Positions 19,315-30,246 of a DNA stretch of 64,000 bases are shown piece after piece. The translations under genes and the position numbers were made by a program. The notes beneath the pieces were generated by a model, which was not told where the DNA came from, did no database searches, and was given only the letters and a program-made list of their open reading frames with translations. How positions within the stretch are numbered: the first letter of the stretch is position 1; each line of letters begins with the position of its first letter. Source of the stretch: Gammaproteobacteria bacterium (GTDB lineage: Bacteria; Pseudomonadota; Gammaproteobacteria; Xanthomonadales; SZUA-36); NCBI GenBank assembly GCA_030426265.1, contig JAUHYP010000013.1, positions 3,817-67,816 of the forward strand, given 5' to 3'.

Positions 19315-19521
19315 GGCATTGTCGCCGGGTGGGAACTCCTGGATGCACTGTCGCAATGGATCGACGCCTTCGCGGGCGGAGGTGGGATCGACATCGCCGT
19401 GCTGTTCGCCAGCGCCCTGGCCGTGACCATCTACTGCAAGCTGATGGCGAAAACCCTGGCGCCGAAGCACGTCCGGGTGAATGTCGTGACGCTAGCTGGT
19501 TTCAGAATGCCGCCGGCTTGA
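19315..19521 (+). pseudogene. possible remnant of a short-chain dehydrogenase gene
   Basis: This open frame has no start codon and reads GGGGIDIAVLFASALAVTIYCKLMAKTLAPKHVRVNVVTLAGF. It matches the SDR pattern (Y-x3-K, then A-K-x2-A-x3-[IV]-R-V-N-x4-G) seen in the intact SDRs of this window. Both ends are truncated and the segment overlaps the 3' end of the TIR gene. Confidence 0.3.
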
Positions 19522-21460
19522 GGTTTCGCGAATGCCAGACCATGCCGTTCTCGTCGGTGCCCTGGTAGTAGTCGCCGACCCGCCTGTGAAAGGGAATTCG
19601 GATGTTGAGCGGTTCACCTGATGTTACGACCAGTCCGCTCAATTGAACGCCGAGGTGAATCGGGTTTGTCTGGTGGTCTCCGGCATCGAGCAAGGGATAC
19701 CCGCTTCCGTGAATCTGTTGCGCTGATTTGCCCGGAAGGATCAACTGCCCGTCGAATTGCTGATCGGAGGCCAGTTGGAACTGTAGTTCGATCACTCCAT
19801 GGAGGCTCGCCGCCCGTGCTTCCCAGTGGCCCTCGTACCGGACCTCCTGAACTCCTTCGTCATTGACCTGGCGGGCCGGTACGAATCGGGGTAAGTGTGA
19901 AGTGTCCGCCTTGCTGCTCAGGTCTTCCCCGGTCGCAAGTCGCTGCTCGATACTCTCAAGGTCTTGCTGGGTTTTGCGCGAGGAGGCGGCCTCCCTCTCC
20001 AAAAGGTCGACGAGGTCCTGGACCAGGTAGGGAAATTCAGACCTGAACCGGCTTTCGTTCAATCCAACAGCGTGCAGTGTGGTCAGCCGCTTCAGGGAGC
20101 TGGGAAGTTCTTCAATCGCGGGCATATCGGCGCCATTCAGAAGTACCGGAAGGATCGCACGGAAACTCTCGAAGGCGGTTTCCACCTCCCTGCGGACCAC
20201 GTCCTGGACGGTCATTATCCCGCCATTGCGAGTCCAGTCCTTATCGATCAGGACCAGTACCACGTTTGCCCGGCGTATTTCGTCGCGAATCGCTTGGGTC
20301 CAGTCCGTTGCTGCTACGTTGTCCGCCACGTCCTGGAACACCTTCATGCGGGGAAAACGCAGCTCCAGTTCGCGTTTGATCTGTCCCGCCAGCGTCGAGG
20401 CGCCGGAGCGGCGGTAGGACAGGACAATGCGTGTCTCGCGCTGGCGGACATAGGCATCCTGTTGCAGAGGTTGCATCCATGGCCTCGCGGCGGGCTCGAA
20501 CTCGTCTGCCAGGTCGGGAGCGGTCGAACTATAGTCACCTGGCGCCAACCCCTGGCTGAGCATGAGAGCGGTGGCAATCCGCGCCAGCTGGCCGTACTCC
20601 TCGAAACCGGTCGCTTCGGGATGCGTGGCATTCCGCGACAGGGTGACGTAGGCCTCCAGGGCCGAGGGGAAGGCACAGAGTTTGCAGAGATCCCGCAACA
20701 GATTCGACCGCAGGCTGGGCCTGTGCGGGTCCAGGTGAATGCCGAACAGGTTTTCACGCAGGGAATCTGTATGTCGACCCATCTTGCTGTACACCACCGC
20801 CAGGGTGCCACGAAAGTAGGCGTCGTAGGGATTGAGCTGTTTGAGGCCTTCAAATCCCTCTCGCGCCGAGTCGATGTCGCCGCGCTTTAGCGCCTGAAAG
20901 TGTTCTTCCGCCCTGTCGTAGGCTTGTTCCATGGTCACGCGTTCCACCACGGACCGCGCCTCGCCGTCGACCAGGAGACTGGCCAGTTCCCGTTCCGCAT
21001 CGTCGAAGAGTCGACTGAGGCCCGATCCGGCCAGGTCGGCGTACAGGCGCAGCGCTCGTTCGGTATCGGCCCGTTGATCGGGTCTGGCGATTCGCATGTG
21101 CGTCACCAGGCCATTGCCAAGGACATCCGGAAGCTGGTCTGCACAGTCAGCGTAGGACCAGGCATCGATGGGATCCAGCTGTTCAAACCGGGCATTGGTG
21201 AATGCATTGAGCGCTCGCATCGACCGGACCAGTGCGATCTGTGTGAACTGGACTTCGAGCGCGGCCGGTCGATCACCGAAGCGCTGCAGGAAGGTTGCTA
21301 TCGCGTTGCTGGCGGCGGTGAGTGATTTCGCGTCCAGTGCGAGGGGACGGGTGCACCCCAGCAGCTCCTGTTCGTCGCCAGGAAGCAACGCCTGTCCACA
21401 GTGCCGACAGAAGGCGCTGTCGTCAGGATTGTCGCCCTGGCATTGCGTGCACTGCGTCAT
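19502..21460 (-). CDS. zinc-ribbon / TPR-like / TIR-domain protein with unknown C-terminal domain
   Basis: Start MTQCTQCQGDNPDDSAFCRHCGQ (CxxC...CxxC zinc ribbon). Helical TPR-like middle region. The TIR domain lies at about 19997-20434 (RIVLSYRRSGAS ... VVLVLIDKDW ... REVETAF). About 135 aa of unassigned beta-rich C-terminus follow. Confidence 0.8.
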   Translation of the reverse strand: MTQCTQCQGDNPDDSAFCRHCGQALLPGDEQELLGCTRPLALDAKSLTAASNAIATFLQRFGDRPAALEVQFTQIALVRSMRALNAFTNARFEQLDPIDAWSYADCADQLPDVLGNGLVTHMRIARPDQRADTERALRLYADLAGSGLSRLFDDAERELASLLVDGEARSVVERVTMEQAYDRAEEHFQALKRGDIDSAREGFEGLKQLNPYDAYFRGTLAVVYSKMGRHTDSLRENLFGIHLDPHRPSLRSNLLRDLCKLCAFPSALEAYVTLSRNATHPEATGFEEYGQLARIATALMLSQGLAPGDYSSTAPDLADEFEPAARPWMQPLQQDAYVRQRETRIVLSYRRSGASTLAGQIKRELELRFPRMKVFQDVADNVAATDWTQAIRDEIRRANVVLVLIDKDWTRNGGIMTVQDVVRREVETAFESFRAILPVLLNGADMPAIEELPSSLKRLTTLHAVGLNESRFRSEFPYLVQDLVDLLEREAASSRKTQQDLESIEQRLATGEDLSSKADTSHLPRFVPARQVNDEGVQEVRYEGHWEARAASLHGVIELQFQLASDQQFDGQLILPGKSAQQIHGSGYPLLDAGDHQTNPIHLGVQLSGLVVTSGEPLNIRIPFHRRVGDYYQGTDENGMVWHSRNLKPAAF

Positions 21461-21501
21461 GATCGTTCCGATCCAATCGTCTACCCGAACAGGAGGGACC
21501 C

Positions 21502-22482
21502 TCAGATCCGCCCCTTCTGAACCAGCCGCCGGTAGTGCTCGCCCAGCTCCGTCAGCCTGCACGCTGTGCGCTCCATCGCGGCATGCCACATGTTGGCCTT
21601 CGAGGCGCCCACGGGGACGACCAGGTTCAGGCGGTTCATTTTCTGCAACAACAGGAACCTGGCGACGTTTTCCGGGTCGGGAGGCGGCGCGTCCGGTTCG
21701 CGGCCGGCCATTTCCGGTTCGAAGCTCGGGTCCAGCGCGAACTCGCTGCCGGGTTCGGGGAAGAATTTCAGGATCTTGCGCAGCTCAGCGAGCTCGATCG
21801 GCGGCGGGACGTTTCTCAGCGACACGAACTTCTTGATATTGGTCCGGAACAGCGGGCGCTGCTCGAAGCCGCCCAGTGATTCGTCGATGTGCGCGTAGAC
21901 GCTGCCGGGCGATATGGCGCCCAGCAGATTCGCGGCGCTGCCTTTCAGGGCATCCACGAACAGGGTCGTGAACACTCCGCGCCCGTCCTTTTCACTCGCA
22001 TACTGCTCCGCGGTGGATGCGGTGAGCACTGTCAGGCCTTCGGACAGGACCACGAGGTCCTTGTGCAGGGGCGCGGCGCCCGCGATGCCGGAGTGGCAGC
22101 TGTCCAGGATGACGAGCTTGTTCCGGGCCGGTGAAAGGTTGGCGTAGGTCAGGACGTCGTTGAGCGAGAGCCCTTCGTCGCCCCGGCTCGAGTCCGAGGT
22201 CAGCAGGTAGCCGCCCGTCGCCTCGATGTGCCCATGGCCGGCGAAGTAGAACAGGGCCACGTCCGCGTCGATGGAGAACACTTCCTTGACGGCGTCGCGC
22301 AGCTGCCTCCGTCCGAGGCCGCTGGCAGCGTCCTTCGCCAGGAACGGCTTGCAATCGAAGTTGCGGGAACCATCACCGTTCCGACCCAGGACATCGAGCA
22401 CGGCACGGGCATCCTCGACGCACCCGAACAAGGGCCGCCCGTGTTGGTAGTAATTGATTCCGACAACCAGCGCGACGCGCAT
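21502..22482 (-). CDS. caspase-like (Peptidase_C14 / orthocaspase-type) protease with unknown C-terminal domain
   Basis: MRVALVVGINYY start. The catalytic His sits in FYFAGHGH (codon 22234-22236) and the Cys in ILDSCHSG (22096-22098). About 115 aa of unassigned C-terminus follow. An alternative GTG start lies at 22491. Confidence 0.85.
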   Translation of the reverse strand: MRVALVVGINYYQHGRPLFGCVEDARAVLDVLGRNGDGSRNFDCKPFLAKDAASGLGRRQLRDAVKEVFSIDADVALFYFAGHGHIEATGGYLLTSDSSRGDEGLSLNDVLTYANLSPARNKLVILDSCHSGIAGAAPLHKDLVVLSEGLTVLTASTAEQYASEKDGRGVFTTLFVDALKGSAANLLGAISPGSVYAHIDESLGGFEQRPLFRTNIKKFVSLRNVPPPIELAELRKILKFFPEPGSEFALDPSFEPEMAGREPDAPPPDPENVARFLLLQKMNRLNLVVPVGASKANMWHAAMERTACRLTELGEHYRRLVQKGRI

Positions 22483-22653
22483 TTCGTCCACTCACGATCG
22501 AATTGTCTATAAATGTAGCAAGTGCGGAGCATCTTGCTCGTGCGCGCAGGTCTTTGTTTTTCAAAGCGACAGGGCGCAGACTATGGGCAGGCCGGTGGGT
22601 GGTTGGTGCTATTCGCCGGACACGCCGCACGCTGTACGGAACGAGGCGCCCTT
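22483..22653. promoter_or_regulatory. divergent control region between the two TIR/caspase operons
   Basis: About 170 bp, locally AT-richer. It holds a TATAAA element at 22508-22513 and an inverted repeat AGCAAG-N10-CTTGCT at 22517-22538. No promoter could be called confidently. Confidence 0.3.
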
Positions 22654-25554
22654 GTGAATGACATCCACATACCCGGCTACGAAATCCTCAAGCAGTTGGG
22701 GATCGGGGGCATGGCCAGGGTGTACAAGGCGCGCCAGTTGTCGCTGGAGCGGGAAGTCGCCATCAAGGTCTTGCGGGCCGATCTCGGGGACGACGTCGAG
22801 TCCTTCAAGAGGCGGTTTTTCAACGAGGGCAGGATCCTCGCCAGCATCACGCACCCCAACATTGTCGCCGTCTACGACCTCGGCGAGGCGGGGGACGCGC
22901 TCTACATCGCCATGGAGCTCGTGCCCGGGGACACCCTCGAGGAGATGGTCCGCAGGGACGGCGTGACGCTGGAACAGGCCATCGGAATCTGCCGGAAGAT
23001 TGCAGGCGCCCTGGATCGGGCGCACGCCAAGGGCGTGATTCACCGCGACATCAAGCCCTCGAACATCCTCATGGAAGACCTGGACACGCCGAAGCTGGTC
23101 GATTTCGGCATCGCCCGGGGTCGCCAGGCCGATGTCGGCATGACCCAGGAAGGCGTCATGCTCGGCACGCCGTTGTACATGAGTCCGGAGCAGGTCCAGG
23201 GCGTCGCCATCGACGAGCGTACGGACATCTATGCGTTGGGCGTCACGCTGTACTGGCTCCTGGCGGGCCGCCATCCTTTCGAGGGGGACGCCGCGCTCGG
23301 CATCGCACTCAAGCACCTGCATGATCCGATCCCCGAACTTCCCGAAGCGGTGGCCGGACTGCAGGCCATCGTCGAGCGCGCGATGGCCAAGGACCCGGCA
23401 GATCGTTTCCAGAGCGCCAGGGAGTTTGCCGATGCCCTCGACGCGGTGGAACTCGATGGTCCGCCGCTCCATCTCGGTGTTCCGACCGCCGATCCGGCGG
23501 GACCCACGCTCGGTCGCACCCAGCCGGCTTACCCGACCCTCGAGGTGCCCCGCAGGGGCGCCTCGCCCGCGACGAAACGCGGTGGTTGGCTCAGCGCCAT
23601 CCTCGGCTGGTTCGGGAAGTCAGACGACGGGGGTGAAGCCGGAACGACCGGGCGCGCATCCGCTCAAGCTCCCGCGGCGCCGGACCCGCAGGCGCAGACC
23701 CACCCACAGATGCCCTCCGTCTCCGGTTCCGAAAAGGGTGCAACGCCGGCCCCCACGCCGGCCCCCTGGCAGGAGTCCACGGGCGCCGCCACCATCCTGA
23801 GTCCCATCACGCCGCCCGCCGAACCCGAATCCCCACCCACCCTCCCCGGGGAACTGGCGCCGCCGTCGGGTGATGACACGCAGTTCCTGGTTCCCGGCGA
23901 GGCCGGCACGGAGCAGGGGCTGGTCGTCAGCCTCGCCGTGACGAGCTCGCCTGACCCATCGTTCGTGGGCACCCGGGTCCAGTGCCAGTCGTTCCCGTTC
24001 CGGATTGGCAGGGGCGGAGAGGCCGATCTGAAAATCGAGCGCGACAGCGCCATCTCCCGGAACCATGCCGAGATCTTCAAGATCGGCTCGGGGTATTACC
24101 TCAAGGACACCAGCGCCAACGGCATCGTGGTCAACGGACAGCTGGGCAAGGACCAGTCCGTGCCCCTGCCGTTCAACAGCTCGATCCAGCTCTCCGATTC
24201 GACGACGCTGACGTTCCAGCCCCACCTCGAACTGCTGCCGGACCTGACGGGCCAGCGCATCGGCGACCGTTTCGACGTCGAGAAAGCCCTCCACCACAGC
24301 ATCAAGGCCTCCACCTACCGCTGCCGGGACCTCGACATGCCGCGCACCGTGGTGGTCAAGCTGTTCTCCCCGCACCTCATGTCCCTGGAGCAGTTCCGGG
24401 ACGAATTCGAACGGCAGGCGAGGCTGACCATGAAGTTCACTTCGCCGCACATCGTCAAGGTGCTCGAGTTCAAGGAGTTCCCGATCCCGCAGATCGCCGC
24501 CGGCAAGCCGGTTTCCTACGTGTGCACCGAGTACATGGAAGGCGGCAGCCTGGCCCGGCGCATGGATGACGAGGACTTTCCGGAAGCGGAACAGGCGCTG
24601 AACTGGGTGGTCGTGCTGGCGCGCGCGTTGGACCATGCTCACCGGCGCGGTGTCGTGCATGGCGACCTCAAGCCCAGCTGCATCGTGTTCGATGCCGACG
24701 GCGCGCCCTACGTCACGGATTTCGCCATGGCGGTGACGGAAGGGGAGGGCAAGGACAGCGCCCGGACCGGCACGCCGGCCTTCTGGGCGCCGGAACAGTG
24801 GGACCGCCAGGCGGCGACCGAGCGCACGGACCAGTACAGCCTGGCCGTGCTGGCCTACTTCATGCTCTCCGGCGCCCGGCCCTTCGAAGGCCAGTCGCAG
24901 CCCCGGATTCGCGAGCGAAACTTCCGCCGCGGCCCCGAGCCGGTGCACGAGGTGGCCGAGCGACGGCGCGGACTGGCGCTCAACAGCAACCTGTCCCAGG
25001 TTCTGGCGCGGGGCATGAGCGTCGACCCGGAAGCGCGCTACGAGTCCGTGACCGCCTTCGCCACCGCCCTGTCCCAGGCAGCGCACACGGCCGAGCAGCG
25101 CCGCAGCACCCCGCGCGTGTTCATCAGTTACCGGCGCAAGGCCAACGCGGGTTGGGCGAACCTCTTTGATTACAACCTCAGGAACCAGTTCGGGTTCGAG
25201 GTGTTCATCGATGCGCGCGCGGTGGACGGTTCGCCGCAGATCCCGACCCGGGTGCGGAACGAAATCGATCGTTGCGATGTCTTCGTCTGCCTGCTCCACC
25301 CCGAGACACTGGAGTCGGACTGGGTGCGGGCGGAGATCAAGCTGGCGCACGAGGCCCGCAAACCCATGGTTCCGGTGTTCTCGGAACACTTCCAGCCCGG
25401 CGCCTACAAGGAGGCGGCGGCCGAAATCCAGGCCCTGCTGGACCACGAGGCCGTCATCTTGCTCGACCAGAAGAACGTCTACCTGGATGCGGCCCTCAAG
25501 ATGCTGGCCGACCAGGTGCAAAAGCTCGTGGGGCCGAGCGGTCGCGTGCACTGA
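22654..25554 (+). CDS. Ser/Thr kinase - FHA - kinase-like (possibly pseudokinase) - TIR fusion protein
   Basis: - Kinase 1 (about 22678-23445): GIGGMARVY loop, VAIK Lys 22765-22767, HRD Asp 23047-23049, DFG, SPE.
- Pro-rich linker.
- FHA (about 23950-24225): FRIGRG, SRNHA, ANG.
- Second kinase-like domain (about 24250-25075): no Gly-rich loop, HGD at 24658-24666, DFA instead of DFG.
- C-terminal TIR (about 25111-25530): RVFISYRR ... SDWVRAEI.
- The start is inferred as GTG 22654 (GAGG upstream); the track start at 22522 is an upstream GTG. Confidence 0.85.
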   Translation: MNDIHIPGYEILKQLGIGGMARVYKARQLSLEREVAIKVLRADLGDDVESFKRRFFNEGRILASITHPNIVAVYDLGEAGDALYIAMELVPGDTLEEMVRRDGVTLEQAIGICRKIAGALDRAHAKGVIHRDIKPSNILMEDLDTPKLVDFGIARGRQADVGMTQEGVMLGTPLYMSPEQVQGVAIDERTDIYALGVTLYWLLAGRHPFEGDAALGIALKHLHDPIPELPEAVAGLQAIVERAMAKDPADRFQSAREFADALDAVELDGPPLHLGVPTADPAGPTLGRTQPAYPTLEVPRRGASPATKRGGWLSAILGWFGKSDDGGEAGTTGRASAQAPAAPDPQAQTHPQMPSVSGSEKGATPAPTPAPWQESTGAATILSPITPPAEPESPPTLPGELAPPSGDDTQFLVPGEAGTEQGLVVSLAVTSSPDPSFVGTRVQCQSFPFRIGRGGEADLKIERDSAISRNHAEIFKIGSGYYLKDTSANGIVVNGQLGKDQSVPLPFNSSIQLSDSTTLTFQPHLELLPDLTGQRIGDRFDVEKALHHSIKASTYRCRDLDMPRTVVVKLFSPHLMSLEQFRDEFERQARLTMKFTSPHIVKVLEFKEFPIPQIAAGKPVSYVCTEYMEGGSLARRMDDEDFPEAEQALNWVVVLARALDHAHRRGVVHGDLKPSCIVFDADGAPYVTDFAMAVTEGEGKDSARTGTPAFWAPEQWDRQAATERTDQYSLAVLAYFMLSGARPFEGQSQPRIRERNFRRGPEPVHEVAERRRGLALNSNLSQVLARGMSVDPEARYESVTAFATALSQAAHTAEQRRSTPRVFISYRRKANAGWANLFDYNLRNQFGFEVFIDARAVDGSPQIPTRVRNEIDRCDVFVCLLHPETLESDWVRAEIKLAHEARKPMVPVFSEHFQPGAYKEAAAEIQALLDHEAVILLDQKNVYLDAALKMLADQVQKLVGPSGRVH

Positions 25555-25688
25555 ACGCCTGGCGGGTGCGGCGCAGGGCGAGGCAGGGGCCTGCCCGAAC
25601 CAGCGAATTTCCCGGCGCTGTCCTATAGTCGAATTCATGCGGATCATTTCAATGATTCGTTGTCGACACGGAAGGAGGTCAGAGGGAA

Positions 25689-27533
25689 GTGGCCAGGAAA
25701 GCGGCCATCGTGATCGGGGTGAACACCACGGGTGGCCTCACCCCGTTGCGCTCGGCGGCGCGCTGCGCCGACGAGGTGGCGGAGTGGCTCGAGGCGGAGG
25801 GCTATGACGTCGCCTGCCTGACGGACGCGGACGAACCGGTCACCACCGGCCGCGTCACCGACGCCATGGACCGGTTCGTGACCGTGCCGCCGCGCTATGC
25901 GCAACTGGTGGTGTACTTCACCGGACACGGGTACTGGCACGCCCGGGCCGACATCTGGCTGCTCAGCAAGGCGCCGGTCCGGACGGAAGAAGCCATCAAC
26001 CTCGAGGGCGCCATCGACCTGGCCCGCTATTCGGGCATCCGCAACGTCATCTTCATCTCGGACGCCTGCCGGTCCCTGCCCGACGTACGGTCCGGCGCGC
26101 TGGTCCAGGGCATCGACGCTTTTCCCAACTTCGCCGACATCACGACCCAGTCGAAGATCGACGTGTTCCGCGCCACCAGTGACGCCCAGGCGGCCTACGA
26201 GGCGGAGGTGGACGGCCAGCCCACCAGCCTGCTGACGCACGCGCTGCGTGCGGCCTTCCGCGAACCCGAGCCCGACATGCTGCGGGACGTGGGCGGTCAG
26301 CAGGTCGTCCCGAACCGGCGGCTCGAGAAGTACCTGCAGCGCAAGATCGACACCACCCTGGGGGCCATCGACCTCAACCTGCGCCAGCGCATCGAGGTCA
26401 ACGTCCCCTCGGATGACGACATCTACATCGCGACCGCCGCCGTCGCCCCGAGCCGACCGCCACCCGGCGAAGTCGTGCATCGTGGTGCGGGCGACGACTT
26501 TGGGATGGACGACCTTCCCATGACTTCGGGTGCGGAGCCGGCATCCCCGGAACCGGAGCCCCCGAAATCGGTGCCTCCCGCAGAGGCCGTTCCCCCCGCG
26601 CCTTCGGTGCTCGGGGACATCCGCGGCAACCTGGATCGCGTGTTCTCCGAGCCCATGGGCATGTCCGACTCCGCCACGATCAATTTCACGATGGACATGA
26701 CGGAGACCGTCGACCGCCTGTCCGGACTCATGCCCCGACCGGACGTGGCGGATCACTTCGAATCCCATTGCGGGTTCACGATTTCCGGCGCCCGGATCGA
26801 GGAGGCCATCTGCGGCGGCGCCGCGGACGGGGTCTTCATCGAACGGTTGTACGAGGGCGATGGCGCGGACCAGCCGGCCGTGGTCCGCCTGTGGGACGCC
26901 GCCCCCGGCGCGACCGTGTTGCTGCGCACGGACGACGGTCGCGTCCTGGTGCTGGCCGGCTTGCCCGATTTCATCGGGCACGCGACGGTCGGCGAAGCCG
27001 GCCTGAAGAACGTGAGCTACATCCCGTCGTCCAATGCCGGCGAGCTCTACGATTTCTACCGGGAAAAGCAGGAGCGCATCGATCGCTTCCGCGCCCTGGT
27101 CGCCCTGGCGGCCAACGAAAACGAGTTCCGGCTGGAATCCGATGACGCGGCCATCCGGCTGGCGGACGAGATCCGGATGGTCAAGGCCCTGGATCCCACG
27201 CTGGGACTGTACGCCGCCCATGCCTACGCCCAGGCCAGCAAGGTGGAAAAGGTGGCCAGTGTCGCCGACGCCATGCGCCACGACCTGCACATCGACCTGT
27301 TCGACCTGGTCGTATTGACCTCGCGCCGTGGCGATCCCTGGCCGGACCGCCCGGTCATGCCGTTCTGCCCGCTGCTCACGCAAACCTGGAACCTGCTCCG
27401 GCCCCGCGGAATCGAGCTGCATCCCGCGCTGGCGGAAGCGTCCGCCTACCTGCGCAACGCCCTGTGGACGACCTTCGAGGCCGAGGCCTGGGATCCGCTC
27501 CGCGCGGCGATGGAATTGGGAGAGTTGAGATGA
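25689..27533 (+). CDS. caspase-like protease domain with a ~400-aa unknown C-terminal region
   Basis: GTG start with AGGAGG SD. KAAIVIGVN is followed by His in VVYFTGHG (25926-25928) and Cys in FISDACRS (26067-26069). A Pro-rich linker leads into an unassigned C-terminal region. Confidence 0.8.
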   Translation: MARKAAIVIGVNTTGGLTPLRSAARCADEVAEWLEAEGYDVACLTDADEPVTTGRVTDAMDRFVTVPPRYAQLVVYFTGHGYWHARADIWLLSKAPVRTEEAINLEGAIDLARYSGIRNVIFISDACRSLPDVRSGALVQGIDAFPNFADITTQSKIDVFRATSDAQAAYEAEVDGQPTSLLTHALRAAFREPEPDMLRDVGGQQVVPNRRLEKYLQRKIDTTLGAIDLNLRQRIEVNVPSDDDIYIATAAVAPSRPPPGEVVHRGAGDDFGMDDLPMTSGAEPASPEPEPPKSVPPAEAVPPAPSVLGDIRGNLDRVFSEPMGMSDSATINFTMDMTETVDRLSGLMPRPDVADHFESHCGFTISGARIEEAICGGAADGVFIERLYEGDGADQPAVVRLWDAAPGATVLLRTDDGRVLVLAGLPDFIGHATVGEAGLKNVSYIPSSNAGELYDFYREKQERIDRFRALVALAANENEFRLESDDAAIRLADEIRMVKALDPTLGLYAAHAYAQASKVEKVASVADAMRHDLHIDLFDLVVLTSRRGDPWPDRPVMPFCPLLTQTWNLLRPRGIELHPALAEASAYLRNALWTTFEAEAWDPLRAAMELGELR

Positions 27534-28405
27534 GAATCCTGTTCATTCACGGACGCGCCCAGGGTGGCAAGGACCCGGTCGCCCTGGCGAAACTCTGGAA
27601 CGACACCCTGAAGCTGGGCTTGGAATCGGCCACGGAGGCCCTGCCGGACGGGGTCGGGGTGGACTTTCCCTATTACGGCGATGCGCTGGACGACTTCACC
27701 GCGCGCGCCGATCTGCCGTCCCCGGACGAGGTGGTCGCCAAGGGGCCGGGCCAGGACGCCGGCTTCGAATCGTTCATGCAGAGCGCCCTGGACGAGATGT
27801 ACCAGAAATCCAGCCTCACCGAGGACCAGGTGGAAGCCGAGATGACCACCGGCCAGGTGCAGGAGAAGGGCCCGCAGAACTGGGGCTGGGTGCAGGCCAT
27901 CGCCCGGGCCCTGGACAAGCATGTCACGGGAGCGGCGGACTGGACCATCGACCGATTCCTGAAGGACGTGTACCTGTACGTCAACATCCCGACCGTCACC
28001 CGCGGCATCAACGCCATCGTCGAGGACATGATCACGGATGAGCCGACCGTGGTGGTCGGCCATTCCCTGGGCACCGTGGTGGGCTACAAGGTCATCCAGG
28101 AGAACCAGGGCAGGCTCAACGCCTGCAAGTACATCACCCTGGGCTCACCCCTGGGCATTCGCGCCATCAGTTCGAAACTGGGCCTCCCGGAAAACCTCGC
28201 CAAACAGGGCTGGTACAACGCCTACGACGACGGCGACGTGGTGGCCCTGAACCCGCTGGATGACCGGTATTTCCCGACCGACCCGGAAATCGTGAACAAC
28301 AACGGCGTCCACAATTTCACGGACAACCAGCACGGCATCGCCGGCTACCTGAACGACGCCAGGGTGGCGGCGGAGATCGTCAAGGCGGTGCGCGGTCACC
28401 CTTAG
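27530..28405 (+). CDS. alpha/beta-fold hydrolase (lipase/esterase-like)
   Basis: ATGA overlap with the upstream stop (27530-27533). MRILFIHGRAQGG start. The nucleophile elbow is VVVGHSLGT (Ser codon 28064-28066). There is no signal peptide. Confidence 0.75.
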   Translation: MRILFIHGRAQGGKDPVALAKLWNDTLKLGLESATEALPDGVGVDFPYYGDALDDFTARADLPSPDEVVAKGPGQDAGFESFMQSALDEMYQKSSLTEDQVEAEMTTGQVQEKGPQNWGWVQAIARALDKHVTGAADWTIDRFLKDVYLYVNIPTVTRGINAIVEDMITDEPTVVVGHSLGTVVGYKVIQENQGRLNACKYITLGSPLGIRAISSKLGLPENLAKQGWYNAYDDGDVVALNPLDDRYFPTDPEIVNNNGVHNFTDNQHGIAGYLNDARVAAEIVKAVRGHP

Positions 28406-28432: not shown

Positions 28433-29551
28433 TCAGTCCTGGTCGGATTCAGTGATGCGAATGTCGCGGAGCAGTCGCTCCAGGGCACGCTCATAGCTCG
28501 TGGCGTCCTGCCAGTTCGAGAAATCACCGATCTGCCGCGCGTTGCGAATGTCCGAACTCCAACCTGATTCCACATCGAGAATCGAGTCGTCGAGCCGGAT
28601 CGGCAGGAGGACGCCGATCTTCAGTTTGGTTTCCTTGCGAAAAGCGGTTTCGACTTCCTTTTCGATCCACGGGCTCTCAAAGGAATTCGCGGACAGCACG
28701 AGCAGCAGGTGATCGTGTTGCCCGATGGCTTCGTCGATGCGGTTGCGAATACGGTCGCCGATTCTCATGTCTTCCGGAGCGAACCAGCAGCGAACCCCTG
28801 CGGCCTGCAGGTCCCCGTACAGCTTCCGGACGAAGGCTTCGTCACGTTGGTTGTAACTGATGAAACAGGAGCGGTATTTCTGAAGCTGGGCGACCTCTTC
28901 GGTATACAGCGCGATCACCCTGTCCGGCATGCCGCAACCTCGCAGAAATTCCGGAACGGCATGCCCCATCCAGCGAACGGTGTCGTGATCCAGGGAACTG
29001 GGGCCGAGATGAACCGTGTCGTCGAGTCCGGTCGCTTCGCGAAAGTCGGTCCGACCGAAGACGGTATCCAGGAAACTCGCCCGGCCAAGCGCCGCGCGAT
29101 AGAAATTGGTTTTGCGAAGGTCTGCGCCCGCCAGGTTGCTCCCGGTCATGGTTGCGCGAACCAGGCGGGCCCTGCGCAGGCAGGCCTGGCTGAGATCTGA
29201 ATCGATGAGATAGGCGCGCTCCAGGTTCGCGCCGCTGAGGTCTGCCTGGTACAGGGTCGCGTGATCGAGCGTCGCCTTGCTCAGGTCAGCCCCTCCGAGA
29301 TTGGCCTTGACCAGCCGTGCGCCCGTCAGGTTCGCGCCACAGAGGTTCGCGTAGGTCAGGTTGGCATGGCCCAGATCCGAGCCGGAAAGATCGGTGCCCA
29401 GGAGCATCGCGTCCTGCAGGTCGATGTGACCCAGGTCCTTTCCAGCCAGGTTGGCGCCGGACAGGTTGGCGTCTTCCCCTCGGCGCTGTTTCCACTCGTT
29501 CCATGCGAGAACGCCGGCTTCGAGCTTGCGCAACTGCTTGGGGTTCGCCAT
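28433..29551 (-). CDS. pentapeptide-repeat - TIR-domain protein
   Basis: ATG at 29551 (MANPKQLRKLE). About 28 pentapeptide units (ANLSGANLAGKDLGHIDLQDAMLLGTDLSG...) span about 29053-29473. The C-terminal TIR lies at about 28570-28870 (SCFISYNQRD ... LLLVLSANSFESPWIEKEVETAF). Confidence 0.85.
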   Translation of the reverse strand: MANPKQLRKLEAGVLAWNEWKQRRGEDANLSGANLAGKDLGHIDLQDAMLLGTDLSGSDLGHANLTYANLCGANLTGARLVKANLGGADLSKATLDHATLYQADLSGANLERAYLIDSDLSQACLRRARLVRATMTGSNLAGADLRKTNFYRAALGRASFLDTVFGRTDFREATGLDDTVHLGPSSLDHDTVRWMGHAVPEFLRGCGMPDRVIALYTEEVAQLQKYRSCFISYNQRDEAFVRKLYGDLQAAGVRCWFAPEDMRIGDRIRNRIDEAIGQHDHLLLVLSANSFESPWIEKEVETAFRKETKLKIGVLLPIRLDDSILDVESGWSSDIRNARQIGDFSNWQDATSYERALERLLRDIRITESDQD

Positions 29552-29596
29552 GCGGTCGTTTCCTTTGACCTCGATCCCGGCCGAGGGATCCAGTCC

Positions 29597-29624
29597 GATC
29601 ACCACCAAAAAAGTCTAGCGCAAG
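29597..29624 (+). repeat. right copy of the direct repeat bracketing the TIR/caspase island
   Basis: The core AAAGTCTAGCGCAAG at 29610-29624 is identical to 19242-19256. A perfect 7-bp inverted repeat CGAACGG-N5-CCGTTCG follows at 29636-29654. Confidence 0.55.
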
Positions 29625-29724: not shown

Positions 29725-30246
29725 ATGATGCCATCCGGTGATGCCAACATGAGCCACGCACGTCCGATCCCTTCAGAGGTCCGCTACCGCGACCCGGCCT
29801 TCGAGCAGGCACTGGGGAGTCTTGGTGGCCCCGTGAAGGGGCAGGGCGCCACGGTCTGGCTGTTTACCGGGATGCCGGGCGCGTTCCTGCGCAAGGAAGC
29901 CCAGTCCGTGGCGGCCCGGCTGGGCAAGCGCCTGGTCACGGTCGACCTGAAACCCGCCGGCAGCCGCTACATCGGCGAAACGGAAAAGAACCTGTCCCGC
30001 ATGTTCGGCGAGGCCAGCCGCTCCGGCTGGATCCTGTTCTTCGACGAGGCCGACGCCCTGTTCGGCAAGCGCAGCAACGTCCAGGACGCCCACGACCGAT
30101 ATGCCAACCAGGAAGTCAGCTACCTGCTGCAATCCATCGAGGCGCACCAGGGCCTGGTCATCCTGGCGACCAACCATCCTTCCGCGGCGAAACCGGCGTT
30201 CAAGTCCAGCCGGACGCGGAGCATGGTGGTGAAGTTTCCGCCTTAG
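29725..30246 (+). CDS. truncated/degenerate classical-clade AAA+ ATPase module
   Basis: The core is strongly AAA-like: SRYIGETEKNLSRMFGEA, Walker B ILFFDEADALFGKR (30031-30054) and DRYANQEVSYLLQ. The Walker A position reads GMPGAFLRKEA (29869-29895) instead of GxxGxGK[ST]. The protein is only 173 aa. Confidence 0.7.
   Translation: MMPSGDANMSHARPIPSEVRYRDPAFEQALGSLGGPVKGQGATVWLFTGMPGAFLRKEAQSVAARLGKRLVTVDLKPAGSRYIGETEKNLSRMFGEASRSGWILFFDEADALFGKRSNVQDAHDRYANQEVSYLLQSIEAHQGLVILATNHPSAAKPAFKSSRTRSMVVKFPP

Follow-up and report, generated by a model that had tools for sequence, protein, structure and literature searches.

What do two overlapping genes that encode a caspase-like protease with a long C-terminal tail and a lipase-like alpha/beta-hydrolase do together? 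The genes lie at positions 25,689 to 28,405 of a 64,000-nucleotide (nt) stretch of DNA from a gammaproteobacterium (contig JAUHYP010000013.1, positions 3,817 to 67,816), and this whole stretch is called the window here. A sequence-only reading of the window had proposed a stoichiometric pair of effectors, a protease and a membrane-attacking hydrolase. Our analysis makes it probable that the two genes make up a death module complete in itself, a protease with its zymogen, in which a caspase activates an alpha/beta-hydrolase of a published type. The idea of a caspase-activated zymogen of this kind goes back to a prediction of 2020 and was put to the test in 2025, and the window pair is a further example of it.

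The two genes form a conserved unit

Related loci were collected by a search of one genome per GTDB species, with the alignment of the protease as query, which gave 78 loci (single loci are given by L numbers where they have to be told apart). The sequence-only reading had named beforehand the lack of conserved neighbourhood in other genomes as grounds against its proposal. By tblastn, an orthologue of the hydrolase was found directly downstream of the protease and on the same strand in ~68 of the 78 loci, and the exceptions were mostly contig ends, caspase-only relatives or a partner swap. The linked loci span seven phyla, namely Pseudomonadota, Nitrospirota, Actinomycetota, Acidobacteriota, Bacteroidota, Gemmatimonadota and Chloroflexota. 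Pairwise identities co-varied across 49 loci, with r of 0.84 between the caspase domain and the hydrolase and 0.78 between the tail and the hydrolase. The two genes are a conserved unit. The proposed effector pair thus stands as a functional, conserved pair, but the relation between its members is most likely that of enzyme to substrate and not that of a stoichiometric complex.

No conserved third gene accompanied the pair. When the flanking open reading frames (ORFs) were clustered all against all, the largest families (ABC ATPases, dehydrogenases and the like) reached no more than 6 of 69 loci, and in a Pfam scan no family matched more than three of the 128 ORFs nearest to the pairs; TIR, CHAT, caspase and AAA_16 were each seen twice and nSTAND1 once. 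A conserved sensor or third gene near the pair was ruled out by the clustering and the scan together. The pair was also found on rhizobial and Hymenobacter plasmids and, in Dokdonella koreensis, beside a gene of the RAQPRD family, and IS66 was seen at L008. On a conjugative plasmid of Sinorhizobium medicae (L080; NZ_CP149882, 39026-50729), the tailed caspase and its hydrolase stand back to back with an S8 serine peptidase and an MBL-fold hydrolase, which make up a second module of the protease-plus-effector type. The partner of the tailed caspase on this plasmid is annotated as 'hypothetical protein' and aligned to the hydrolase family with an hhalign E of 6.9e-90.

Two basic-glycine motifs mark predicted cut sites in the hydrolase

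The downstream protein proved to be what had been read from the sequence, an alpha/beta-hydrolase of 291 amino acids (aa) with a GHSLG motif around Ser179 and without a signal peptide. Its N-terminus is strand beta-1 directly (MRILFIHG), and close homologues start at the same Met. A search for the family gave 2366 matches, and in Pfam the protein matched Abhydrolase_6 only, below the cut-off. The AlphaFold2 model (predicted local distance difference test, pLDDT, 92) is a complete alpha/beta fold with an intact triad, and a helical insert of ~130 aa carries two motifs in which a basic residue is followed by Gly. These motifs were compared in 67 hydrolase orthologues, extracted from the loci around tailed caspases. 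Position 71 was Lys or Arg in 67 of 67 and position 72 was Gly in 66; position 113 was again Lys or Arg in all 67 and position 114 was Gly in 60. The residues that flank both motifs vary, and Lys and Arg alternate freely. Both motifs were absent from a stand-alone distant homologue that has no caspase neighbour. The source of this homologue (L081; CAKLQH020000003.1, 187780-196661) is a record labelled 'Acinetobacter phage MD-2021a', yet gltX, lysP, tRNA and metal-efflux genes flank the homologue and the record looks like a bacterial chromosome.

The motifs match the cleavage sites of a protein studied by Evans et al. 2025 (PMC12642450). In that work LcCaspase of Lysobacter capsici AZ78, with its catalytic Cys129, cut LcHydrolase after Arg73 and Arg117; at both sites the Arg is followed by Gly, and this was conserved in 161 homologues. 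Fragments of 8.1, 4.7 and 19.8 kDa were obtained, the N-terminal one and the C-terminal one together were toxic in E. coli, and site 1 was placed in a helix spanning residues 64-73. The window pair resembles the Lysobacter pair in gene order (a protease with an N-terminal caspase domain, then a hydrolase of ~290 aa), in the position of the catalytic Cys (127 against 129) and in the positions of the basic-Gly motifs (71 and 113 against 73 and 117). A double cut of the window protein at these motifs is predicted to give fragments of 7.6, 4.6 and 19.5 kDa, and site 1 would end the same helix (65-71 in our model). For both hydrolases the nearest relatives by fold are of the lipase type; the substrate of LcHydrolase was not found, and HHpred pointed to lipases and oligopeptidases (PMC12642450). 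Four features of a caspase/alpha/beta-hydrolase module were seen in the window pair: conserved adjacency, a His-Cys dyad, two basic-Gly motifs near 73 and 117 and a Ser-Asp-His triad.

A protease-to-zymogen relation is most likely because the two invariant [K/R]-Gly sites sit where a hydrolase of the homologous type is cut. We place the pair in the known protease-plus-zymogen module because of this match to the sites of Evans et al. 2025 and because of the pairing described by Kaur, Burroughs, Iyer and Aravind 2020 (PMC7159879), who found that in certain conflict systems centred on a nucleoside triphosphatase (NTPase) the caspase domain always occurs with a neighbouring alpha/beta-hydrolase gene. 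Those are the MoxR-vWA (VMAP) and GAP1 ternary systems, where the same obligatory pairing is seen but the caspase is fused to or stands beside VMAP, vWA, MoxR or GAP1; in contrast, the window type has no such conserved component in its ~68 loci, and the pair stands alone.

In the mechanism that we propose, the protease (His80/Cys127) would be specific for basic residues and, once activated, would cut the co-expressed hydrolase after Lys71 and Lys113. The double cut would free an inhibitory middle segment of 4.6 kDa, and the 7.6-kDa N-terminal and 19.5-kDa C-terminal fragments would form the active hydrolase with its Ser179-Asp-His268 triad, which would kill or arrest the cell, most probably as an abortive-infection defence. 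The C-terminal tail of the protease, 270 aa on a flexible Pro-rich linker, would be a regulatory or assembly part. The domain make-up, catalytic residues, gene linkage, cut-site motifs and co-inheritance come from the present analysis, and the double cleavage after Arg-Gly and the toxicity of the N and C fragments come from the Lysobacter pair studied by others. From these we infer the same behaviour for the window pair, and likewise its part in defence, what triggers it, what the tail does and what the hydrolase acts on.

The protease carries a conserved tail of its own

The caspase-like N-terminal domain described from the sequence, with its FTGHG His and SDACRS Cys, was borne out by Pfam. 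Peptidase_C14 (PF00656) matched residues 3-195 with an E of 3.1e-9 (37.3 bits against a cut-off of 21.4), and with the His-Cys dyad this score above the curated threshold places the protein in the Peptidase C14 (caspase/metacaspase/orthocaspase) superfamily. The protease does not belong to the EACC1-associated caspases; the NCBIfam model NF047832 scored 31.8 bits against a cut-off of 140, and the neighbour here is an alpha/beta-hydrolase. Scans with Pfam, PADLOC and NCBIfam found no known sensor domain (WD40, STAND and others) in the protease. WD40 and STAND sensors have been described on proteases of such modules (PMC12642450), and neither of the two was seen here.

What had been described as a Pro-rich linker followed by about 400 aa of unknown tail turned out to be a variable linker of ~96 aa, Pro-rich as stated, and a conserved domain of 270 aa. 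An alignment of 33 homologues showed conserved motifs in this domain (DHFES-x2-GF, GYIGH, NVSYVPS, DPTLGLYAAHAY, DLFD, PFCPMLTQxW and SLWTTF). The invariant residues, D502, Y508, D539, W567, W593 and others, make no obvious catalytic set, and the His of GYIGH is substituted in several members. Structure prediction followed by a Foldseek search had been put forward as a check on the tail. The AlphaFold2 model, built from 116 sequences, was confident (pLDDT 92; predicted template-modelling score 0.89) and shows an eight-stranded beta-sandwich followed by a helical bundle, but neither the PDB nor the BFVD viral library contained a fold that matched it at E<0.001. Pfam, NCBIfam and PADLOC assigned nothing to the tail and matched only the caspase domain of the protease; a sequence search with the tail against the PDB gave no match, and a profile search of PDB sequences gave one weak HEAT-like/alphaRep match to a single helical stretch (E 0.0015) with no significant stretch. 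A relation between the tail and the C-terminal domain of a second, Thoeris-like caspase of 329 aa encoded nearby in the window was ruled out (hhalign probability 0.1%).

A phmmer scan of 1.84 billion cluster representatives found the tail in 938, of which 713 matched at E<=1e-10. The tail was C-terminal in all of the 150 matches listed of these 938, and among the matches listed it lay at about residues 320-610 in full-length proteins of 560-680 aa. An N-terminal caspase domain preceded it in 8 of 8 sampled full-length members. This caspase lineage therefore has the tail as its constant companion.

A sister clade with export signals, and a partner swap

By a strict pattern, 20 of 64 loci (L010-L013, L018, L020, L022, L024-L028, L030, L034-L036, L042, L053, L054, L058) have a twin-arginine (Tat) signal on protease and hydrolase alike, and on inspection 26 do (adding L017, L029, L038, L043, L051, L057). 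Such signals read, for instance, MRRRDFLA... or MxNRRxFL..., with a hydrophobic stretch after each. In the hydrolase tree these loci make up a nearly monophyletic group with 26 leaves, and their genes lie 80-280 nt apart without overlap; the window pair belongs to the signal-less, overlapping group. The hydrolase signal of L038 ends in a lipobox-like LAGC. As judged from its predicted signals, the sister clade implies a periplasmic version of the module. The tail is equally conserved in the exported and the cytoplasmic groups, which speaks against the tail as a sensor of a phage molecule in the cytoplasm or of a nucleotide made by TIR. The text searched of Evans et al. 2025 (PMC12642450) makes no mention of periplasm, signal peptides, a tail domain, Tat-exported versions or partner swaps.

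In two actinomycetotal loci (L006 and L007), a tailed caspase of a 560-aa subclade is followed by an unrelated protein of ~276-277 aa. The partner gene of L007 (11683-12516) has an ATGA overlap with the tailed caspase gene, whereas that of L006 (11759-12570) is apparently interrupted by stop codons. The alternative partner had no match in Pfam, PADLOC, NCBIfam or the PDB, and its family comprises 19 clusters, several of them apparently from contigs that carry 560-aa tailed caspases. Because this subclade keeps the tail with an unrelated partner, the tail is not a hydrolase-specific docking site; a part in regulating or assembling the protease is more likely.

The hydrolase had been cast as a lipase-type executioner that attacks membranes, and on its model this is plausible but unproven. 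In a Foldseek search of the PDB the top matches were the A. fulgidus lipase (E 3.7e-4), the Nir2 DDHD domain, B. subtilis LipA and a Francisella carboxylesterase/phospholipase; the matches were weak, with template-modelling scores of about 0.27-0.5 and identities of 11-19%. The window hydrolase shares with such minimal lipases and phospholipases (LipA, the A. fulgidus lipase, the FTT258-type carboxylesterase of Francisella and the DDHD domain) the GxSxG nucleophile elbow, the HG after strand 1 and the Ser-Asp-His triad, but the similarity is weak and the ~130-aa helical insert with both predicted cut sites sets it apart. A membrane lipid as the substrate is a guess, to which we give somewhat less than an even chance. 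By an indirect argument, the existence of the Tat clade would call for a substrate that can be reached from both the cytoplasm and the periplasm, and the inner membrane would fit as such a target. A bolder idea, with a low chance of being right, is that the tail may be a control domain of new fold that gates the caspase in answer to a signal found on either side of the inner membrane, for example membrane or envelope damage, and not to a phage molecule in the cytoplasm, while a hydrolase of the phospholipase type destroys the inner membrane from either face.

Layout of the locus and surrounding genes

The coordinates of the pair, its residues and its neighbours are given in Table 1. The ATGA overlap between the two genes exists as claimed. 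The tight coupling read from it is not universal, as the intergenic gaps of the exported clade show. A regulation of its own had also been suggested for the pair, from a small inverted repeat in the 134-nt gap upstream of the protease gene. The repeat is present at chance level: the window as a whole has 0.46 perfect 6-bp inverted repeats (spacer <=6 nt) per 134 nt, and one turns up in 18% of shuffled versions of the gap. The repeat was rejected as an operator on these frequencies. No sigma-70-like promoter was found between 25300 and 28700, and the terminator-like sites near the pair, which lay on the opposite strand, did not exceed their frequency in shuffled sequence. Just 3' of the kinase-TIR gene's stop there is another short inverted repeat, GGCAGG-GG-CCTGCC (25582-25595), which lacks a T-run and was not called by the terminator scan. 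The window has a base composition of 65% G+C, and around the pair no signature of horizontal transfer was seen, with no tRNA genes and no clear GC shift.

Several conflict-type genes stand beside the pair between ~19.5 and 30.3 kb of the window, and this region looks like a defence island. The fusion protein encoded upstream of the protease has an active-looking Ser/Thr kinase domain, an FHA domain, a second kinase-like domain and a C-terminal TIR domain. The 329-aa caspase and the zinc-ribbon/TIR protein (19502-22491, minus strand) resemble the layout of type IV Thoeris, and the two caspase domains of the window are only 27% identical. Elsewhere the genes of the island are not conserved neighbours of the pair, except at L004, which has a TIR gene upstream, and at L008, which has a homologue of the 329-aa caspase upstream.

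Table 1. Features of the protease/hydrolase pair and its neighbours (window coordinates; aa numbers refer to the respective protein)
Feature	Position	Strand	Remarks
Protease gene, caspase plus tail	25689-27533	+	GTG start, TGA stop, 614 aa, 66.9 kDa; full-length homologue family found
Shine-Dalgarno sequence GGAAGGAGG (strong)	25670-25678	+	10 nt 5' of GTG start; homologues begin at equivalent residue
Caspase (Peptidase C14) domain, aa 1-248	25689-26432	+	Pfam PF00656; dyad invariant in 33 sequences
Catalytic His80 (FTGHG)	25926-25928	+	codon checked; invariant in 33 homologues
Catalytic Cys127 (SDACRS)	26067-26069	+	codon checked; invariant in 33 homologues
Pro/Ala/Ser/Gly-rich linker, aa 249-344 (~96 aa)	26433-26720	+	length and sequence vary among homologues (33-sequence alignment, columns 416-560); composition
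Conserved C-terminal tail domain, aa 345-614 (270 aa)	26721-27530	+	beta-sandwich, then helical bundle (AlphaFold2)
Tail beta-sandwich, aa ~362-446	26772-27026	+	AlphaFold2 model
Tail helical bundle, aa ~452-609	27042-27515	+	AlphaFold2 model
ATGA stop/start overlap of protease and hydrolase genes	27530-27533	+	read from sequence; -4 or -1 overlap also in cytoplasmic clade of related loci
Alpha/beta-hydrolase gene	27530-28405	+	291 aa, 31.7 kDa; putative zymogen effector
HG oxyanion dipeptide His7-Gly8	27548-27553	+	after strand 1; codons checked
Predicted cleavage site 1, Lys71/Gly72	27740-27745	+	end of helix 65-71; corresponds to Arg73/Gly of LcHydrolase
Predicted cleavage site 2, Lys113/Gly114	27866-27871	+	loop 103-117; corresponds to Arg117/Gly of LcHydrolase
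Nucleophile Ser179 (GHSLG)	28064-28066	+	invariant in 60 homologues and across 67 orthologues; codon checked
Triad Asp candidates Asp233 / Asp236	28226-28228 / 28235-28237	+	nearly invariant; codons checked
Triad His268	28331-28333	+	invariant or nearly so; codon checked
Perfect 6-bp inverted repeat ATCATT-TC-AATGAT	25643-25656	.	upstream gap; probably not meaningful, chance level
Zinc-ribbon/TIR protein, 695 aa	19502-21589	-	follows 329-aa caspase
Caspase with small C-terminal domain, 329 aa	21502-22491	-	Pfam C14 4e-16; PADLOC 'caspase' 2e-19
Kinase-FHA-kinase-TIR fusion, ~1000 aa	22522-25554 (start probably near 22654)	+	Pfam; ends 134 nt 5' of protease gene
Pentapeptide-repeat protein with C-terminal TIR	28433-29608	-	PADLOC PDC-S66, 1.6e-16; converges on hydrolase gene, 27-nt gap
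IetA/IteA-like AAA ATPase fragment, 173 aa, apparently truncated	29725-30246	+	adjoins pentapeptide-repeat/TIR gene

Weighing the explanations

Several points weigh against a caspase-activated death module with a role in phage defence. The published work on the module shows no phage-defence phenotype (PMC12642450), and nothing in our analysis shows how the window protease is kept inactive. Most related loci lie among housekeeping genes and not in obvious defence islands. The pair was not found in the viral contigs of IMG/VR, where the only 'phage' match was the stand-alone distant hydrolase on its bacterial-looking contig. In ~40% of related loci both proteins are predicted to be exported by the Tat route, a poor fit to a cytoplasmic phage sensor. 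The residue before the predicted cuts (P1) is Lys in the window protein but Arg in the tested one, and the relatedness to LcCaspase and LcHydrolase is drawn from motif positions, sizes and architecture, not from a sequence alignment.

Some of these points would also suit a maturation protease and the pro-enzyme of an ordinary physiological esterase or lipase, which might remodel envelope lipids or help to acquire nutrients, with cleavage as routine activation and not as a suicide or defence switch. The near-monophyletic Tat clade, in which the signals on both proteins point to periplasmic action, agrees with this, as do the mostly housekeeping neighbours, the absence from viral contigs and the lack of a recognisable sensor domain next to a tail too well conserved for a fast-evolving phage sensor. 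However, the window pair has no signal peptides, and an unregulated lipase-like enzyme in the cytoplasm would be harmful; moreover, the fragments of the Lysobacter hydrolase kill E. coli (PMC12642450). The window pair also lies among TIR, caspase and IetA-like genes, the Sinorhizobium pair sits on a conjugative plasmid beside the S8/MBL module, and the pair occurs patchily, in association with mobile elements (IS66 in L008, the RAQPRD gene in Dokdonella, the plasmids). We regard a routine maturation role as unlikely. A purely parallel action of the two proteins, in which co-expression is all that links them, cell proteins are degraded by the protease, the hydrolase works on its own and neither processes the other, appears highly improbable. 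Caspase-like proteases of type IV Thoeris and PCaspase do cut many cell proteins after Arg, and the modelled hydrolase already has a complete fold of the alpha/beta type and an intact triad, but the two [K/R]-Gly motifs, kept in all 67 orthologues within otherwise variable surface segments, are lost in the caspase-free homologue, and direct, site-specific cleavage was demonstrated for the Lysobacter pair (PMC12642450).

The neighbouring genes of the window raise the question of whether the pair might be the executioner arm of a TIR/kinase island. A TIR-made nucleotide, or phosphorylation by the kinase-FHA-TIR fusion, would then act on the tail and so turn the protease on, just as the caspase of type IV Thoeris is turned on by N7-cADPR. 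Three TIR-domain proteins and the Ser/Thr kinase-FHA-TIR fusion lie within 6 kb, just 134 nt separate the kinase gene from the protease gene, and a TIR gene (L004) or a homologue of the 329-aa caspase (L008) stands directly upstream of the pair elsewhere. In contrast, TIR occurs in only 2 of the 128 nearest neighbours and no kinase is conserved, the tail is just as conserved in the Tat-exported clade, where it would be out of reach of cytoplasmic nucleotides or kinases, and it does not resemble the C-terminal domain of the window's Thoeris-like caspase. This arrangement is very unlikely to explain the pair; a functional link to the TIR and kinase genes may exist at this locus and is unlikely as a general mechanism. 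Type IV Thoeris itself (bioRxiv 10.1101/2024.10.24.620036) resembles the locus in the TIR genes close by, but its protease is the effector, which cuts many proteins, has a small C-terminal domain and depends on an obligatory TIR partner. The window pair has an unrelated 270-aa tail, no conserved TIR partner and, as we propose, a dedicated zymogen substrate; its rare TIR neighbours and unrelated tail place the protease outside the type IV Thoeris caspase effectors.

A caspase-activated zymogen thus remains the probable explanation of the pair. In this form the module is akin to the bacterial gasdermin, MBL-nuclease, Pepco and EACC1 modules, in which a protease encoded next to a latent toxic protein releases that protein by site-specific cleavage; the window effector differs in being an alpha/beta-hydrolase with two predicted cuts, and not a pore former or a nuclease.

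Implications

Genome pipelines label the two genes merely 'caspase family protein' and 'hypothetical protein' or 'alpha/beta hydrolase'. Read together, they would be a clear case, open to checking, of a bacterial zymogen activated by a caspase, which is a logic held in common with animal cell death, and the comparison yields exact predicted cut sites (K71/G72 and K113/G114) and catalytic residues for the window protein. The remaining interest lies in the tail domain, with its 938 cluster representatives and no structural relative, in the Tat-exported sister clade and in the partner swap, all of which bear on the trigger of the protease and the target of the hydrolase. If a signal shared by the two faces of the inner membrane and a phospholipase were indeed combined in this module, they would explain the caspase-tail-hydrolase design in both its cytoplasmic and its Tat-exported versions.

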